Part shown: piece by piece, positions 3,232 to 41,720 of the stretch
Numbering within the stretch: position 1 is the first letter of the stretch
How the letters are laid out: the number at the start of each line of letters is the position of its first letter
Assembly: GCA_020832725.1 (NCBI GenBank)
Contig: JAFIEC010000418.1
Location: forward strand, 5,518 to 69,517
Length of the DNA: 64,000 nucleotides
DNA from: Paracoccaceae bacterium
GTDB taxonomy: Bacteria > Pseudomonadota > Alphaproteobacteria > Rhodobacterales > Rhodobacteraceae
Reading direction: 5' to 3'
Notes under the pieces: generated by a model
Told to the model about the DNA's origin: nothing
Database searches by the model: none
What the model saw: only the letters and a program-made list of their open reading frames with translations
Made by a program: the position numbers and the translations under genes

Positions 3232-5244
3232 GTGGTCCCCCTGCCACTGTCTTGCCGAAAGCCCCAGCCCATGCCGCGCCCGCCCTGGTTCCTGATCCTT
3301 GTCGCCTGTCTGACTGTCCCGCTGCTGTTGCGGCCCGCGCCGCTTGCCGCGCAGACAGAAACCCCGTTGCAGGATCTGCTGCAATCCATGCAGCAGATCG
3401 TTGCCAGCCCGTCGCGCGCGCGCGTCGCCGAAGTGCTGGACGCGCTGCAACAGGCTGACGCCCCCGGCACCACGACCTTCCTGAACCGCTGGGCCGCCAG
3501 AGAGGTTTATGAACGCCCCGAGGACGGGCTGTTCTTCTATGGCCGCGAAGGCGCGGCGCGCAGTCTGATCCTGATCGATATCGATACAGACGCGGACATC
3601 GCCGAAGTCACCACCCGCGATGTCAACCAGATCCGCGTCAATGCCGGGGTTCGGCGCGAGATCGAGGCCGCGATGGTCAGCTTCGAATTGCTCAACCCCG
3701 ATCCCGCGCGCCGCAGCGCGGCGCTTGCCGCGATTGCCCGCAGCCCCGACCCAGAGCAGATACCTTTGCTGGAAGCCGCGCTGGAGGCCGAGGAACAGGC
3801 CGCGATTGCCACCCGCATGGCCCGGCTTCTGGACCTTCTGAATGCCCGCTTTGCCACCGACAGCGCGATCCGCGTGGCCGCGATAGAGGGGTTGCGCGGT
3901 GACATCAGCACCGAAGCACGGCGCGCGCTGAACCAGATCCTCGCCACCAGCGCCGAATTGGCGCCTGAAATCCCCGCAGGCAGCAATGTCGCGCGCATCC
4001 GCGTTCCGGGCCAGGATATTGACCTGCTTGCTGCTTATCAGCGGCTGTCCGATGCCGGTCTTGCGCCGCCGCGGCCGGGCCGCAATGCCATCCGCGACGC
4101 GCTGCGTGCCAATGTCGTCGATGGCGAGGTGGGTGGCATCCCCGTTCATCAGCTTCACACCGATGAGATGCGCCGCGCCACCTATCGCGCGCTGGAAGCG
4201 GCGGGCAGCGTGCCGCCATTGGTCACGCAAGCCGATATCGAAGCGGCAGTCGCGGAATATGTGTTCTTCGATCAGTATCTGGAACCTGACCCCGCCGTGA
4301 CCGATGCAGCCCGCGCGGCGCTGGACAGCACGCGCACGGCCATTTCGCTGTGGCAGTTCCTGAGCCTTTCTATCGACGCGCTGTCGCTGGCCTCGATCTT
4401 CTTTCTGGCCGCAATCGGGTTGGCCATCACCTTTGGCGTGATGCGGGTGATCAATATGGCGCATGGCGAGTTTATCATGATGGGCGCCTATACCGGCTAT
4501 GTCGTGCAGACCATGATCCCGAATTACACCACATCTCTGATTGTCGCGCTGCCGCTGGCCTTTCTTGTGACCTTTGCCGCCGGGGTGGCGATGGAGCGGA
4601 CGGTCATCCGCCATCTTTATTCCCGCCCGCTGGAAACCCTGCTGGCAACATTCGGCATTTCCATTGCGCTTCAGCAACTGGCCAAGAACATCTTTGGCAC
4701 GCAGGCGCGGCCGCTGACGTCGCCCGACTGGCTGGCGGGGTCGATTGCCCTGAATGATCTGGTGTCGGTATCGACCATCCGGGTGGCGATTTTCGTGATG
4801 GCGCTGGCCTTTCTGCTGATCCTGCTGTTCATCCTGAACCGTACCCGCCTGGGGCTGGAGGTGCGCGCCGTTACCCAAAACCCCGGCATGGCAGCCAGCA
4901 TGGGTATCAACCCCGACCGCATCAACATGCTGACCTTCGGGCTGGGGTCTGGCATTGCCGGGGTGGCGGGCGTGTCCATCGGGCTGGTGGCGCAGGTCAC
5001 CTCTGAGATGGGCGCGAACTACATTGTGCAAAGCTTCATGACGGTCGTGGTGGGCGGGGTCGGTTCGGTCTTCGGCACGCTGGCCGGGGCCACCCTGATC
5101 GGCGCGCTGCAAAAGGGCATCGAATGGTTCAACCCCGGCAACACGCTGGCCGCGCAGACCTATATGGTGCTGTTCATCATCCTGTTCATCCAGTTCCGGC
5201 CCAAGGGCATTGTTGCCCTAAAGGGCCGCGCCGCAGGGGATTGA
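3232..5244 (+). CDS. urtB: Urea ABC transporter permease UrtB with a long N-terminal periplasmic extension
   Basis: The C-terminal ~300 aa is a branched-chain-type permease (GVMRVINMAHGEF..., MGINPDRINMLTFGLGSGIAGVAG). The N-terminal ~370 aa follows a signal-like segment. Start is uncertain: GTG 3232 or ATG 3271. Confidence 0.85.
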   Translation: MVPLPLSCRKPQPMPRPPWFLILVACLTVPLLLRPAPLAAQTETPLQDLLQSMQQIVASPSRARVAEVLDALQQADAPGTTTFLNRWAAREVYERPEDGLFFYGREGAARSLILIDIDTDADIAEVTTRDVNQIRVNAGVRREIEAAMVSFELLNPDPARRSAALAAIARSPDPEQIPLLEAALEAEEQAAIATRMARLLDLLNARFATDSAIRVAAIEGLRGDISTEARRALNQILATSAELAPEIPAGSNVARIRVPGQDIDLLAAYQRLSDAGLAPPRPGRNAIRDALRANVVDGEVGGIPVHQLHTDEMRRATYRALEAAGSVPPLVTQADIEAAVAEYVFFDQYLEPDPAVTDAARAALDSTRTAISLWQFLSLSIDALSLASIFFLAAIGLAITFGVMRVINMAHGEFIMMGAYTGYVVQTMIPNYTTSLIVALPLAFLVTFAAGVAMERTVIRHLYSRPLETLLATFGISIALQQLAKNIFGTQARPLTSPDWLAGSIALNDLVSVSTIRVAIFVMALAFLLILLFILNRTRLGLEVRAVTQNPGMAASMGINPDRINMLTFGLGSGIAGVAGVSIGLVAQVTSEMGANYIVQSFMTVVVGGVGSVFGTLAGATLIGALQKGIEWFNPGNTLAAQTYMVLFIILFIQFRPKGIVALKGRAAGD

Positions 5245-34432: not shown

Positions 34433-35652
34433 CTGATACGCATCCCTTCGGGGTTGAACGTGATTTCTATATCACGCCAGTGATCGTATTTCTCGGGCGG
34501 CAGGCCGTAGCCGTCGCCGGCGCAGCGGATGATCGCGCGGCGCGCGGCCTCGAAGGCCTGCGAGGTGGCCGACTCGCCGCCGCCCGAGGCGCTGATCATC
34601 CGGATCGAGCCCATTTCGGGCATGGCGTTGGGGGTCATGGACACGCCCACCACCACGGTCACGCCCATCGCCTCGGTCGACAGCGCGCCCAGGTTCCAGC
34701 ATTGCTGCACCGCCAGGCGCAGCCCGTCGGCTTCGGACTGGCTCAGCCCGCCGGTGGCGGCGCGCGCGGGGCCGGGGTCGGCGGCACCGCCTGCCAGCGC
34801 CTCGGCCAGTGCATCGGCGATAGCGTCGCGCGGGGCCTCGGGCTCGGGGTCCGGTTCGGGCGCGGGTTGCGGCGGCGGTGCGGGCCGTTCGGCGGTCTGC
34901 GCGGGTTCGGGCTGGGGCTCCGGTTGGGGTTCGGGTTCGGGCCGGGGTTGCGGGCGCTCGGGGCGGCGCTGCGGGCGCGGGCTGATCTCGGGCGCGCGGG
35001 CGGCCAGGTCCAGCGACTCGCGGTCGGTTTCCGTCGCTTCGGTGACGATCTCGGTGGTGGCCTCGGGCAGGGCGGTGGCCTGGGCTTCGGGTTCCACCAC
35101 TTCTGCCTCGCGTTCGGCATCGGGGGTGATCGCCGCGGACTCGGCGATGTCGATGCGGGCCTCGGGGTCGGGGGCCTCGCTCGGCGTGGGGGCGACGCGG
35201 TCCACGGGGCGCGGGCGCGGGCGCACCGAACTGCCCGGCGCGGGCAGGGGTGAAAACACGACACCGGTTTCAGGCACAACAGGCGCCGCCGGTTCGGGCT
35301 GTGGCTGCGGTTCCGGTTCGGGCTGCGGTGCGGGGGCCGGTTCCGGCGCGGGCGCGGGGGGCGGGTCCTGCTCCAGCGGTGCCGGTGCGGCGATTTCCGG
35401 TTCGGGGGTGGGTTCGGGCGCCGGTTCGGGGGCCGGTTCGGGCTCGGGCGCCGGCGCCGGTTGCGGCGCCGGGTCGGGGCTGCGCGCGGGGGCCTGCAAT
35501 GCGGCGAATTCCTCGGCCGAGATCAGGGCGACATCGGTCACGGGCACGCGCATGCCGGAATCGGGCGCGCGGAACAGGTCACCGACCATCACCCAGAGGA
35601 TGAGGCCGATGTGCATGGCGCCCGAAATCTTCTGTCCCGTGTCCAGGGGCAT
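34429..35652 (-). CDS. tolA: TolA (membrane anchor, very Pro/Glu-rich linker, C-terminal TolA domain)
   Basis: Position between tolR and tolB. N-terminal TM segment ([14 protein letters not shown]). Long PEPEP/PAPEP low-complexity region. Confidence 0.75.
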
Positions 35653-36958: not shown

Positions 36959-37357
36959 TTATCCGTGATCGATGCAAAGGGCGCGCAGCGCGGCGGGAAA
37001 CCGCCGGGGGCGGGCGCCCGCGTCCAGGCAGACCAGCACCACGCGGGCGTCGAACAGGAGCGCATCGCCGCGCCGCACCTGCTGGCGCAGGGTCAGCCGC
37101 GCAGGGGTCGCGGCCTCTGCCTCGGTGGTGACGCTCAGCAGATCGTCGAACCGGGCCGGGGCCAGATAGTCGGCCTCTACCCGCCGGACGGCGAAGACCA
37201 GACCTTGTTCGGCCTTCAGCGCCGCCTGATCGACCCCCAGCGCCCGCACCCACTCGCTGCGCGCGCGTTCGATGAACTTCAGGTAATTCGCGTAATAGAC
37301 GATGCCCGCAAGGTCGGTGTCCTCGTAATAGACGCGGACGGAGTGGGTGTGGGTCAT
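36959..37357 (-). CDS. ybgC: Tol-Pal-associated acyl-CoA thioesterase YbgC (4HBT hotdog fold)
   Basis: 132 aa. N-terminus VRVYYEDTDLAGIVYYANYLKFIERAR. First gene of the tol cluster. Confidence 0.85.
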   Translation of the reverse strand: MTHTHSVRVYYEDTDLAGIVYYANYLKFIERARSEWVRALGVDQAALKAEQGLVFAVRRVEADYLAPARFDDLLSVTTEAEAATPARLTLRQQVRRGDALLFDARVVLVCLDAGARPRRFPAALRALCIDHG

Positions 37358-37507
37358 TTGGTGTCCTTCCGTCCTTGTGCGCCGTCTGGGGGGCGTGCGG
37401 TGCGCGACCCTCTAGCATCGGCGCGCGACCGGGGCCACGGGGAAGGCGGGCGGAACGGGGCGGGGGGGCAGGCGGGATCCTACCGGGAGTCATGTTGGAC
37501 GGGGATC

Positions 37508-39187
37508 ATCCGAACACCTGATAAGGACAACCATATGAAAAAAAGTTGTGTTTATCGAATATTCAAGTAATTCCAGAGGCCTGGGTGTATACACACGCCC
37601 AAGCTAGGCTTCAAAAACTCTTCCCCGCGATGAAACCAATAATATCGCCTCGCGTTGAAAGAGTCATCGTAATTTCCAATAACACCGTAATGAAACAAGT
37701 CGTCAACGAGTGTGGAGGTATTCGCAAATCCAAACTTCGCTATGACTGATCTATCGAATTCATCAAATGACTTGTAAAGTCTCTTGTTTATATTCTCCCT
37801 AAGTGTTTTAGCGATGGCATTCCCATGTCTTACGCTTATCTCATCCTTGATTTCATTCATCGCTCGCCTTGAATACTCGTTAAGCGCATTCTTTATCTCA
37901 TCTTCCCCTATTCTGGGTGAATCTGGGTTCTCGTCTGCTATCGAGTTGAGTAGCTGCACAACATCACGAGGTCGTCCCCAAGTGTTTATTTTAATAAAAT
38001 TCTCAAGTAGAATGGTCTTCTTTCCGAAATTAATTTTGGGTTCAACAAAATCAGCAAAATTGATTACTTCTAGATGTTTGGAGTGAATGACTTTCTGGAT
38101 AAGAAGTCGAAACAGAAGTGTCTCGCTCCCATCACTCATGTCCCATTCTAGCTTAACGCTTTTGCCGTCCACGAGTTTTCCGATTTCGGAATCCATGTCA
38201 TTAAGCAGATTCCGAATCTCTGGTCTGAGCGCACATACAATGTGAAAATCAAGATTGTGCTTAATAAAGAAATTATTTAATTCACGAGCTGATCTCAGTA
38301 TGTCACGGACCATCGCTGCCCGAACCTTAACCTCGTCATCTGCTGCATCAAGTCGCGACAAAACTAGCTCGTCAACATACAAGTAAAACAAATGATCTTG
38401 ATGGTGACGCCTCAATAGCTCGAGCGCTGCACTGATATACTCACTCAAGGGAACTTCGCTCCCCCCTTTGTATTTGGCGAAGTCAAATCCAACAGACGCT
38501 GAAATGTCAAACATCTCTGCAGATATCTCAACTGAGGCTGATTTCAAAACACCTTCGAAAATAGACGAGAGTCGACTCCTCTTTCCAAGGACGAATTTCG
38601 TAAATTGTGAAGTGAATGAGTTCTCACTCAGCTCTTCAGCAATTTTTACCAAAAAAGTTCTAAGCCAAATTTCTCGAAAATCATAATTCAAAAAAATGTT
38701 CCTAGAATTAACAACTCCCAGCATATCTATTTTTTGGGTTCTCGCGGCGCTATTGTAGTCTTTTGGCTTGACATCGGAGTGAAACGAAAAAAACTTTGAT
38801 ATGTATCCCTTTTCTTTTAGTTTTTCCGACAAGTAAAACTGAACAGCCGTTTTTCCTGAGCCTTTTCGTCCAACAATAATGTATTTTCTCTTGTTGTTGA
38901 GTGAATTCATCGAAAACGAGGTCGGCAGAATGAAAGTCGAGTGGAAATACTCGGGAAAGTTGTTGCCTTCGTCAATCGCCTCCACGTCGCCAAAGTAACA
39001 ATCAGACAGCATCTCTTATCCATCCATCGTCAGCACATTGATAAACGCCGCCTGCGGGATATCGACCTTCCCGAACTGGCGCTTCTTCTTCGTACCCGTT
39101 TTCTGATTCTCGAGCAATGTCTTCTTGCACGCCATGTCCCCGCCGTTGGCTGCCTGGATCGGTATTTCAAACATGTTGCGGGGGATC
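37508..39187. other. Low-GC islet (foreign composition) inserted between yqgE and the ybgC-tol promoter region; no recombinase seen
   Basis: There is an abrupt switch near 37510 from GC-rich flank to AT-rich DNA: by eye about 35-40% G+C over 37.55-39.01 kb, intermediate over 39.02-39.19 kb. Imperfect direct repeats lie at 37491-37507 and 39172-39187. Confidence 0.6.
37552..39012 (-). CDS. Orphan soluble P-loop NTPase (486 aa), family unassigned; candidate defence/abortive-infection ATPase
   Basis: Uninterrupted 486-codon ORF in AT-rich DNA. Walker A GRKGSGKT (aa 48-55), Walker B YLYVDE (aa 210-215), Arg-rich TWGRPRD (aa 344-350). No TM segments and no recognisable nuclease, protease or TIR motif. 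Confidence 0.85.
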   Translation of the reverse strand: MLSDCYFGDVEAIDEGNNFPEYFHSTFILPTSFSMNSLNNKRKYIIVGRKGSGKTAVQFYLSEKLKEKGYISKFFSFHSDVKPKDYNSAARTQKIDMLGVVNSRNIFLNYDFREIWLRTFLVKIAEELSENSFTSQFTKFVLGKRSRLSSIFEGVLKSASVEISAEMFDISASVGFDFAKYKGGSEVPLSEYISAALELLRRHHQDHLFYLYVDELVLSRLDAADDEVKVRAAMVRDILRSARELNNFFIKHNLDFHIVCALRPEIRNLLNDMDSEIGKLVDGKSVKLEWDMSDGSETLLFRLLIQKVIHSKHLEVINFADFVEPKINFGKKTILLENFIKINTWGRPRDVVQLLNSIADENPDSPRIGEDEIKNALNEYSRRAMNEIKDEISVRHGNAIAKTLRENINKRLYKSFDEFDRSVIAKFGFANTSTLVDDLFHYGVIGNYDDSFNARRYYWFHRGEEFLKPSLGVCIHPGLWNYLNIR

Positions 39188-39210
39188 GGCGCCTTGATGT
39201 TTTCGCACAT
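39016..39210 (-). CDS. Small basic hypothetical protein (64 aa, or 52 aa from ATG 39174), stop 3 nt before the NTPase start
   Basis: ORF with moderately high GC3. TAA at 39016-39018, then GAG, then the NTPase ATG at 39012. Lys-rich centre [20 protein letters not shown]. No homology recognised. Confidence 0.4.
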
Positions 39211-39229
39211 GCCGCCGCCCCGCCACGCC

Positions 39230-39811
39230 TCAGGCCCGCCCCGCCGCGCCCGACAGCATCACCGGGTCCACGCCCAGCGCGCGCAGCGCGGCCTCCCATT
39301 GCGCGGGGGGCGCGGTGTCGAAGACCAGCGCGGCAGTGGCGGCGACGCTCAGCCAGCCGTTGGCAAGGATCTCCTCCTCCAGTTGCCCCGGCGCCCAGCC
39401 CGCATAGCCCAGCATCATCCGCGCCCGCGCCGGGCCGCGCCCGTGCAGCATGTCCTCGAGGATATCAAGCGTGGCGCTCATGGCGATGCCCTCGGCCACC
39501 GGCAGGGTGGTGGCACCGCCATCATACTCGGCGCTGTGCAGCACGAATCCGCGGCCATGCTCCACCGGACCGCCGAAATGGACCGCTGCATCGGGTGCGC
39601 TGTGCTGCGCGTCCTCGGCGACCAGTTCCAGATGCGCCATCAGCGCGCCCAGCCGCAGGTCCGGCAGCGGCTTGTTGACGATCAGCCCCATGGCGCCCTG
39701 CGGCGAGTGCGAGCAGATACAGACCACGCTGCGCGCGAATCGCATGTCGGGCATGCCGGGCATGGCGATCAGCAGCTTGCCGGTCAGGTCCAGGTGATCC
39801 GAGGCGCTCAT
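39230..39811 (-). CDS. yqgE: YqgE/AlgH family protein (UPF0301)
   Basis: 193 aa from ATG 39811. [40 protein letters not shown] and [14 protein letters not shown] are characteristic. Confidence 0.85.
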
Positions 39812-41231: not shown

Positions 41232-41720
41232 TCAGAACGGGATTTCGTCATCCATGTCGGGCGGGCCGCCGCCATAGCCGCCGCGATCATTGCCACGGTC
41301 GCCGCCCCCGCCTCCGCCCCCGCCACTGCCACTGCCACTGCCACTGCCACTGCCGCCACCGTCACCGCCACGCCCGTCCAGCATGGTCAGCGTGCCGCCC
41401 ATTCCGGCCACCACGATATCGGTCGAATAGCGATCCTGCCCGCTCTGGTCCTGCCACTTCCGGGTCTGCAGCGACCCCTCCACATAGACCTTCGACCCCT
41501 TGCGCAGGTATTGCTCGGCCACCCGCACCAGCCCGTCACCACGCAGCACCACATTGTGCCATTCGGTGCGTTCGCGCTGTTCGCCGGTGTTGCGGTCGCG
41601 CCAGCGCTCCGAGGTGGCAATGCGCAGGTTGCACAGCTTGCCGCCATCGGGGAAGGTCCGCACCTCGGGGTCGCGCCCCAGATTGCCCACCAGGATCACC
41701 TTGTTCACCGAACCTGCCAT
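41232..41720 (-). CDS. ssb: Single-stranded DNA-binding protein SSB
   Basis: [23 protein letters not shown]-fold N-terminus, Gly/Ser-rich linker, acidic tip DMDDEIPF. Confidence 0.95.
41322..41351. repeat. Perfect hexanucleotide tandem repeat (GCCACT)x5 inside the ssb linker
   Basis: Read directly. It encodes the (GS)5 part of the SSB disordered linker on the minus strand. Confidence 0.9.

Follow-up and report, generated by a model that had tools for sequence, protein, structure and literature searches.

In a 64,000-nucleotide (nt) stretch of contig JAFIEC010000418.1 from a Paracoccaceae bacterium (assembly GCA_020832725.1, positions 5,518 to 69,517 of the forward strand; referred to as the window), a foreign segment of ~1.7 kb (about 39223 to 37510, minus strand) has displaced that part of the yqgE-ybgC spacer which lies next to yqgE. 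The segment carries the gene of an ATPase that is an added member of a family that has been catalogued but not characterised, preceded by a decayed 3′ end of lepA, designated lepA′. With moderate confidence, we consider the whole to be best explained by the import of a segment consisting of a lepA tail and the ATPase gene, its illegitimate integration, expression by read-through, and a function of the product as a single-gene anti-phage NTPase. All local genes, namely, yqgE, a small and a large open reading frame (ORF), and ybgC-tolQ-tolR-tolA, are located on the minus strand, and the features of the region are as follows.

39230..39811, minus strand: yqgE (YqgE/AlgH family), host border gene (NF001268, 222.8 bits, cut-off 216)
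39016..39223, minus strand: lepA′ fossil (LepA_C, TIGR01393, nucleotide alignment to lepA of locus L001)
39016-39210, minus strand: residual lepA′ ORF with ATG start, 64 codons, still open
37552..39012, minus strand: gene of the ATPase, 486 amino acids, the cargo gene (NF047389, phrog_13260)
37510..37551, minus strand: AT-rich 3′ tail of the insert past the ATPase stop codon, ~40 nt
37358..37509, minus strand: retained host spacer, ybgC-proximal and promoter-side (aligns with L102, L106, and L109)
36959..37357, minus strand: ybgC, first gene of the tol-pal cluster and other host border (TIGR02799, 169.8 bits, cut-off 141)

A first-pass annotation of this DNA had described an AT-rich islet at 37510-39187 in an otherwise GC-rich window. 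A scan in sliding 200-bp windows over the stretch confirmed this, as the G+C content was 0.35-0.49 at 37500-39000, compared to 0.59-0.80 in the flanks around the islet. The intermediate zone that had been placed before the return to host composition was found at 38900-39200 (0.50-0.535), with 0.67-0.76 directly beyond it. Expressed as steps, the G+C content drops from 0.68 to 0.41 over 37.51-39.01 kb and is then 0.53 up to 39.22 kb. The ATPase gene had a G+C content of 0.41 versus 0.68 for the remaining window (z = -5.8), and the minimum among the non-islet 1461-bp windows was 0.585. Its G+C content at third codon positions (GC3) was 0.44, compared to 0.88 for yqgE, 0.85 for ybgC, and 0.89 for tolQ. 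When the limits of the insert were set by alignment to relatives (~39223 to ~37510), the proposed edge at 37510 held, and the one on the yqgE side had to be moved slightly outward, to about 39223.

Besides its foreign G+C content and GC3, the state of the same spacer in related genomes supported the earlier view of a horizontally acquired cassette, including the prediction of an empty site in relatives. In loci L102-L105, whose YqgE is 90% identical to that of the window, the spacer is empty and 261 bp long, and in L109 (YqgE 80% identical) it is empty and 393 bp long. The gene order in L102-L105 is the same as in the window (photolyase, CMAS, SLT, SSB, DsbD_N, yqgE, ybgC, tolQRAB, pal, cpoB), and the 80% relative agrees with the window in its gene order as well, apart from the insert. 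Colinearity of the window with L102 extends from 46076 to 31604, save for 39228-37388. The closest relatives, L106-L108 (YqgE 94% identical), contain another gene of 236 codons on the opposite strand in this spacer (L106:3971-4681, minus strand; start MQDRYAGDVGDFVKLGLLRAL; G+C ~0.55-0.58), whose product had no match in Pfam, NCBIfam, PADLOC, or PHROG. As the relatives are either empty (90% and 80%) or otherwise filled (94%), the islet is a real insertion, and the yqgE-ybgC spacer is an insertion hotspot confined to this lineage.

The borders of the insert could be located because the flanking genes are well conserved at the nucleotide level: yqgE is 88-93% identical to L102 and L106 up to window position 39228-39223, and ybgC is 86-91% identical to the relatives. 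Host-type sequence stops 7-15 nt beyond the yqgE stop codon (39223-39215), and in the alignments to L102, L106, and L109 host similarity returns weakly at ~37500 and strongly at 37388. These three relatives have kept a spacer element of ~60 nt downstream of yqgE (GGGACCrAT.GTC...GCGTCwGC..TGCGGGAC; L102:6595-6660, L109:6610-6670, L106:3790-3855 and 3944-3972), which is present twice in L106, 118 nt apart, and whose predicted folding was not above that of shuffled sequences. Since the element is missing in the window, it must have been lost when the insert took over the yqgE side of the spacer, which makes the empty state the ancestral one. The notion of a highly conserved yqgE/tol-pal neighbourhood did not hold: of 80 metagenome contigs whose YqgE is 52-61% identical, none had ybgC or tolQ downstream of yqgE within the available sequence of up to 4 kb (<2 kb in about 30 of them). 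The adjacency of yqgE and ybgC is thus restricted to the close lineage of the window and not widely conserved.

The first-pass annotation had listed one large gene and a small ORF in the islet. Both are present, but the small ORF is the decayed 3′ end of lepA rather than a cargo gene. Its product matches the extreme C-terminus of LepA/EF4, covering positions 68-106 of 107 in Pfam LepA_C (E 5e-14) and positions 555-595 of 595 in TIGR01393. lepA′ corresponds to the last ~92 codons (~270 nt) of lepA, of which 208 nt are left by an in-frame deletion of 22 codons (66 nt). Window positions 39223-39140 and 39144-39016 align to the lepA 3′ end of Roseinatronobacter sp. S2 (L001) with nucleotide identities of 79% and 71-78%, and the second block continues from lepA through the stop/start junction up to the ATPase stop codon (71% over 1605 nt). 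Similarity to L001 ends at this stop codon (37554). The ATG of the ATPase gene follows the lepA′ stop codon after 3 nt.

Composition and codon differences support this assignment. lepA′ has a G+C content of 0.53 and a GC3 of 0.77, unlike the host genes of the window (0.85-0.89) and like lepA of hosts with ~0.58-0.60 G+C; for lepA, GC3 was 0.74-0.81 in L001 and L002, whose hosts belong to this class, and 0.93 in high-GC hosts. Over 70 codons, lepA′ showed 24-28 nonsynonymous and 14-17 synonymous codon differences to real lepA genes, whereas the latter differed among themselves by 5-11 nonsynonymous and 20-28 synonymous ones (Fisher p = 0.001). This higher share of nonsynonymous differences indicates that lepA′ is under relaxed constraint. 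The cargo was kept while the tail decays, as the ATPase retains all 56 residues that are invariant across 30 homologues.

The presence of a lepA tail was explained by the genomic position of the closest homologues, as their ATPase clade sits directly behind intact lepA. An intact lepA gene directly precedes an ATPase gene of the same clade in L001 (Roseinatronobacter), L002 (Phaeobacter italicus), L003/L004 (metagenome), and L005, which equals L007 (Amaricoccus), with distances from the lepA stop to the ATPase start of 2 nt in L001, 203 nt in L002, 100 nt in L003/L004, and 2 nt in L005. In a neighbour-joining tree, the window protein was placed within this lepA-linked clade, beside L001. Because the combination of lepA tail and ATPase gene matches the arrangement of such a donor, we conclude that a lepA-docked locus was the source from which the segment was copied, and this largely resolves the acquisition route that had previously been called unclear. 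The donor would be a member of the Rhodobacterales with a moderately GC-rich genome (~0.58-0.60).

Integration would have occurred without a recombinase of its own, by illegitimate recombination at short GC-rich microhomology, in a spacer that accepts other cargo too. The probable site of this event is a GC-rich microhomology at the yqgE-side junction, host ...GGCGGGGCGG / insert CGGCATGTGCG. A search for repeats at the junctions gave only GC-rich, low-complexity inverted repeats, which are also found at empty sites and are therefore not element ends. At its other end, the 3′ tail of the insert contains only a weak hairpin (ACAAC...GTTGT) and has no match to the sequences downstream of the other loci; its fold was no better than that of shuffled sequences (z = -0.44), and it has no terminator-like site. 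A scan for promoters and terminators revealed no excess over shuffled sequences, no promoter-like site upstream of the ATPase gene, and no terminator-like site between yqgE and the ATPase gene. For want of a recognisable promoter of its own, the ATPase gene probably owes its transcription to read-through from yqgE, and its translation may be coupled to that of the residual lepA′ mini-ORF; together, read-through and coupling would mimic the usual arrangement behind lepA.

Docking behind a housekeeping gene turned out to be the rule at the alphaproteobacterial loci tabulated. We compared 15 alphaproteobacterial loci including the window, in all of which the ATPase gene is co-oriented with a conserved housekeeping gene and located 0-289 nt behind it. 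The gene upstream is parE at five loci, lepA at four, uvrB at two, and gyrB, thyX, mtgA, and yqgE (the window) at one each. If the lepA′ junction of the window is counted, the gap is 0-37 nt at 10 of the 15 loci, and in L001, L005, and L010 an ATG follows 2 nt past the stop codon of the upstream gene. At a sixteenth locus, L014, the ATPase gene follows a ParD/ParE-like toxin-antitoxin pair, as judged from the translation, no family search having been made on these ORFs. Toxin-antitoxin genes adjoin the ATPase gene at L003:7417-7884, L005:7321-8054, and L014:4380-4900; downstream of the lepA-docked copies (L003, L005) these are a BrnA antitoxin and a ParE/ParD pair. The lepA 3′ flank looks like a variable region in Rhodobacterales.

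At all 15 loci the GC3 of the ATPase gene (0.34-0.54) was below that of the gene immediately upstream (0.69-0.93). The docked ATPases are 41-77% identical to the window protein, and as synonymous sites should be saturated at such identities, AT-richness is not a mark of recent arrival. We infer that the low G+C content is either a maintained trait or due to repeated import from an unsampled AT-rich pool. In the lepA-docked genomes, identity and GC3 of the lepA 3′ end were not raised, giving no sign of recent co-transfer. In a more far-reaching interpretation, which we regard as rather improbable, the ATPase gene is a promoter-less "stop-codon hitchhiker" that borrows transcription and translation of constitutive genes and moves together with the 3′ end of the gene behind which it was docked before. 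This tail may then serve as a recombination handle or leader ORF, and lepA′ may be the first intermediate caught; to date, no "carried tail" intermediate has been observed besides the one in the window.

We then characterized the ATPase itself. It matched NCBIfam NF047389 ("P-loop ATPase, Sll1717 family") with 199.7 bits at a cut-off of 75 and over its full length (residues 7-483 on profile positions 1-454 of 454). A further full-length match was to phrog_13260 (E 8.3e-37; residues 2-486 on positions 4-492 of 497), the counterpart of this family in the PHROG library, which lists it with unknown function and has no curated cut-offs. Homologues on Bacillus plasmids are annotated as "FunZ". The window protein contains a Walker A motif (GRKGSGKT, residues 48-55), a Walker B motif (DELV, 214-217), and the motifs RPExR (263-267) and WGRPRD (345-350), followed by a winged-helix-like C-terminus (~400-486). 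The motifs conserved among the homologues further include an N-terminal FG..EA.DE, YDFR..W.R, DELV.S, RPE.R, W.RPRD, and a C-terminal G.IG...R.YW.HRG...HPGLW. In all 30 homologues including the window protein, the Walker residues G48-K50-G51-x-G53-K54-T55 and D214-E215 are invariant.

With clustering at 50%, the family comprises 2102 representatives if E <= 1e-3 is allowed, and 187 if E <= 1e-30 is required. The close family is sporadic, as a search of 5.8 billion proteins gave 45 clusters at E <= 1e-3, and its alphaproteobacterial subfamily has about 13 representatives at 50% clustering. The window protein is 22-28% identical to the plasmid and phage homologues and 21-28% identical to P0042-P0045, the weakest-scoring relatives, which still pass the family cut-off. 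A literature search revealed no paper on Sll1717, and FunZ occurred as a name only. Walker A/B and RPRD motifs as well as a length of ~490 residues are common to the window protein and the wider Sll1717/FunZ family; docking behind housekeeping genes sets the window subfamily apart. The ATPase gene is frameshifted in Roseinatronobacter sp. S2 (L001:8001-9460; 307 + 170 residues) and in Rhodobacteraceae HTCC2083 (L013:5001-6423; 292 + 191 residues), which shows that the family is being lost in some hosts, whereas it is intact in the window.

An AlphaFold2 model of the ATPase (predicted local distance difference test 85, predicted template modelling score 0.83) consists of an AAA+ core with a helical lid, a helical insertion of ~130 residues separating the two Walker motifs, and a C-terminus of three helices and a β-hairpin. 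The best PDB matches in Foldseek were archaeal Cdc6/Orc1 (2qby_A), SSO1545 (2fna), and BrxC (9zll) (E 9e-6 to 1e-4), with template modelling scores that were modest, at 0.41-0.52, for the two best; TnsC, MuB, DnaA, and RdrA came next. The protein is thus predicted to have an ORC/Cdc6-like AAA+ fold with a winged-helix-like C-terminus. The Pfam search gave only subthreshold matches to P-loop families (ORC-CDC6-like, nSTAND3, ATPase_2) and no effector or extra domain. PF24389 (ORC-CDC6-like) scored 21.1 bits against a gathering threshold of 27 and covered only the N-terminal 37 residues, whereas the longer relatives P0284 (34.2 bits) and P0247 (29.6 bits) exceeded this threshold; nSTAND3 (PF20720) scored 21.1 bits over residues 35-79 against a threshold of 27.2, with no flanking effector or sensor domain. 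In some longer relatives an S1 domain or DUF6273 is added. A search of PDB sequences with the family profile gave nothing meaningful, and a fold search of BFVD gave generic AAA+ matches only.

The first-pass annotation had likened the islet to defence or abortive-infection islets. Such a role of the ATPase is plausible, by analogy with the neighbours of distant relatives and with a prophage position. Three distant members that pass the NF047389 cut-off have such neighbours. In L017, a member adjoins a TIR/ThsB-like PDC-S66 protein and an integron-type integrase; in L018, an integrase fragment and HigBA/PD-Lambda-2; and in L019, prophage portal and capsid genes, a type II methyltransferase, and a HATPase_c_3 protein. 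At the first of these loci (L017:375-3597, a metagenome-assembled genome of Alteromonadales), the family member is split, the TIR protein matches PADLOC PDC-S66 with E 1e-108, and a tyrosine recombinase (Phage_int_SAM_4 + Phage_integrase) lies ~1.4 kb from the TIR gene; the locus may be an integron cassette array. At L019:6779-10360 (a metagenome-assembled genome of Desulfobacter), a low-GC pair is located beside the family member at the edge of a prophage whose portal and capsid genes lie upstream. One gene of the pair encodes the methyltransferase (PADLOC MTase_II, E 2e-103), the other the HATPase_c_3 protein, which has 744 residues and weak MzaB and REase_II matches. In the temperate Lactococcus phage CAP, a homologue is found at the post-lysin end, and of 88 matching plasmid records, 83 are typed as conjugative. 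A variable genomic island of Neisseria meningitidis can hold any of three alternatives, namely, FunZ, a WYL protein, or a helicase (PMC8627216). The match to phrog_13260 and a weak but significant profile similarity to DS-41, a validated single-gene anti-phage system, lean the same way.

In the mechanism that we tentatively propose, with slightly less assurance than an even chance would give, the ATPase would act as a single-protein, ORC/Cdc6-like abortive-infection NTPase. It would bind nucleic acid via the winged-helix-like domain, oligomerise in an ATP-dependent manner, and block phage or cell replication, thereby combining sensor and effector in one protein. AT-rich codons and the reliance on read-through would keep basal expression low.

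Several observations weigh against a defence role and the account built around it. The PADLOC check that had been suggested for the islet brought no real hit: with PADLOC v2 run on the ATPase, the small ORF, and an antisense ORF, the only match was one of 29 P-loop residues to PtuA (PDLC00268, 15.3 bits, residues 40-68 of the ATPase), and the neighbours are yqgE and ybgC, not the PtuB HNH nuclease. The literature search found no report of a defence function for any Sll1717/FunZ member. Except for the toxin-antitoxin pairs at L003, L005, and L014, the neighbours in the window and at the 16 other alphaproteobacterial loci are housekeeping rather than defence genes, defence neighbours being confined to the three distant loci L017-L019, and the close subfamily had no homologue in a collection of viral contigs. 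A search for tails of former upstream genes in the stop-to-start gaps of the other loci yielded nothing significant, and sequence is the basis for the proposed read-through, coupling, and integration at microhomology.

Comparison with a single-gene system of similar size gave arguments on both sides. DS-41 ("AAA2", WP_033812887.1) is a single AAA-type protein of 502 residues with anti-phage activity in E. coli (DefensePredictor, PMC13092281). Like DS-41, the window ATPase is a single P-loop/AAA protein of ~500 residues without obvious effector and with an N-terminal motif before Walker A, and both proteins have a sensor-2-like "...SPRE/RPRD..." motif. However, the window protein reached only 38.6 bits (E 6e-10) with the DS-41 profile NF053860, whose cut-off is 370, and this profile matched a family member over residues 17-429 with 34 bits (E 1e-8). 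When the family alignment was compared to the DS-41 sequence by hhalign, only the P-loop was aligned, with 14% probability. With scores ~10-fold below the cut-off and this hhalign result, we rejected the idea that DS-41 belongs to the same family; at best, it represents another family of one superfamily, and the two are at most distantly related.

Among the alternatives, the strongest is that the ATPase is not an immune protein at all. It could be a selfish hitchhiker, kept by co-transcription with indispensable genes, or an accessory, ORC/Cdc6-like DNA-binding ATPase that modulates replication, topology, or repair. We consider this unlikely, although it has arguments in its favour. The docking partners are rich in DNA metabolism (parE at five loci, gyrB, uvrB at two, and thyX), an effector domain is lacking, the predicted fold resembles that of DNA-loading and initiator ATPases (ORC/Cdc6, DnaA, TnsC, MuB), and both the PADLOC result and the alphaproteobacterial loci without defence neighbours are consistent with it. 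On the other hand, such a factor would hardly be distributed as sporadically as these 45 clusters, be absent from the closest relatives, be frameshifted in L001 and L013, and have a foreign G+C content in every host. Moreover, homologues occur in plasmid, prophage, and genomic-island settings, and lepA, mtgA, and yqgE are not genes of DNA metabolism.

Quite improbable is an alternative in which the cassette was moved in trans by a site-specific system, integron-like or with another recombinase that targets the 3′ ends of genes. The short distance to the stop codon of a conserved gene at 10 of 15 loci would fit, as would the integron-type integrase beside one distant member and the similarity of the stop-proximal sequences of lepA and parE, GGATGGGTGA and GGATGTTTGA. 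The last codons of lepA (ATGGATGGGTGA) resemble those of parE (TTGGATGTTTGA) in 9 of 12 nt (L001, L003, L005, L008, and L010), which may be due to chance or represent a short-homology handle between docking sites. However, a search for end motifs common to the loci found no conserved ends, inverted or direct repeats, or att-like motifs, the downstream boundaries share no sequence, and no recombinase is located near any alphaproteobacterial locus. In addition, the junction in the window lies inside lepA at codon ~508, not at the stop codon.

It is highly improbable that no insertion took place, the gene having been present at this junction from the start and lost from the relatives: deletion can in principle create empty sites, but nothing specific speaks for it, and the spacer element common to the relatives is missing in the window, the lepA tail is foreign, G+C content and GC3 are far from those of the host, and the yqgE-ybgC junction is young, being missing at 52-61% YqgE identity. 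Least probable of all is a chimeric contig made of AT-rich foreign reads assembled or binned into a GC-rich genome, since, despite the origin of the sequence from a metagenome-assembled genome and a short contig (L101) that breaks 62 nt upstream of ybgC, contig L100, which comes from an independent assembly, shows 100% identity over 2999 nt including both junctions, the flanks are colinear with the relatives, the insert lies exactly in the spacer, and the lepA tail meets the host at the GC-rich microhomology.

Returning to the reading of an imported lepA tail and ATPase segment, we compared the islet and its protein with known systems. The best structural matches, the ORC/Cdc6 AAA+ proteins (2qby, 2fna, PF24389, BrxC), cover the base, the lid, and the C-terminal winged-helix-like part; the window protein differs from them in being below all Pfam cut-offs, in its helical insertion of ~130 residues, and in having no replication-origin context. 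Unlike BrxC of BREX systems, it has no BREX partners. The islet resembles single-gene islets at core-genome hotspots, which likewise show a low-GC gene between conserved genes, empty or alternative sites, and no integrase. It differs from them in carrying a fossil of the upstream gene of the donor and in that its family elsewhere abuts housekeeping stop codons at 0-37 nt and in the same orientation; to our knowledge, such stop-codon abutment has not been described as a feature of single-gene islets. A literature search for a link of lepA to defence islands or hotspots returned nothing relevant.

As stated in the first-pass annotation, no integrase, transposase, or tRNA is adjacent to the islet. 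A search of 27-50 kb of the window found no tRNA, no recombinase or phage gene is adjacent either, the flanks are colinear with a relative and contain no extra genes, and there are no element-end repeats; the features of an integrase-borne island or prophage were therefore not found. The housekeeping neighbours do not form a defence island. An Rfam search over 34-43 kb (E <= 0.1) matched nothing. Overall, the earlier interpretation was partly supported. Two genes nearby have unusual sequence: the central part of tolA (window 34700-35500), with a G+C content of up to 0.80 and a strong AT skew down to -0.79, codes for long Pro/Glu/Ala-rich repeats, and the SSB gene (window 41232-41720, minus strand) encodes a long Gly/Ser tract ahead of the conserved C-terminal DDEIPF tip.

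The yqgE-ybgC spacer provides a clean natural experiment, as it is empty, filled, or alternatively filled among close relatives. The insert holds a fossil of its previous address, lepA, which allows a horizontal transfer without recombinase to be traced base by base. Its occurrence on conjugative plasmids, in a temperate phage, and in a variable island of Neisseria makes the family a reasonable candidate for a single-gene immune protein, and if phage defence were shown, it would add an ORC/Cdc6-like single-protein system. The unusual parts are the carried lepA tail and the recurrent docking at stop codons, and the docking pattern is worth explaining even if there is no defence role. Should the ATPase gene indeed live as a promoter-less hitchhiker, this would represent recombinase-free gene mobility combined with expression parasitism, whatever the function of the protein.

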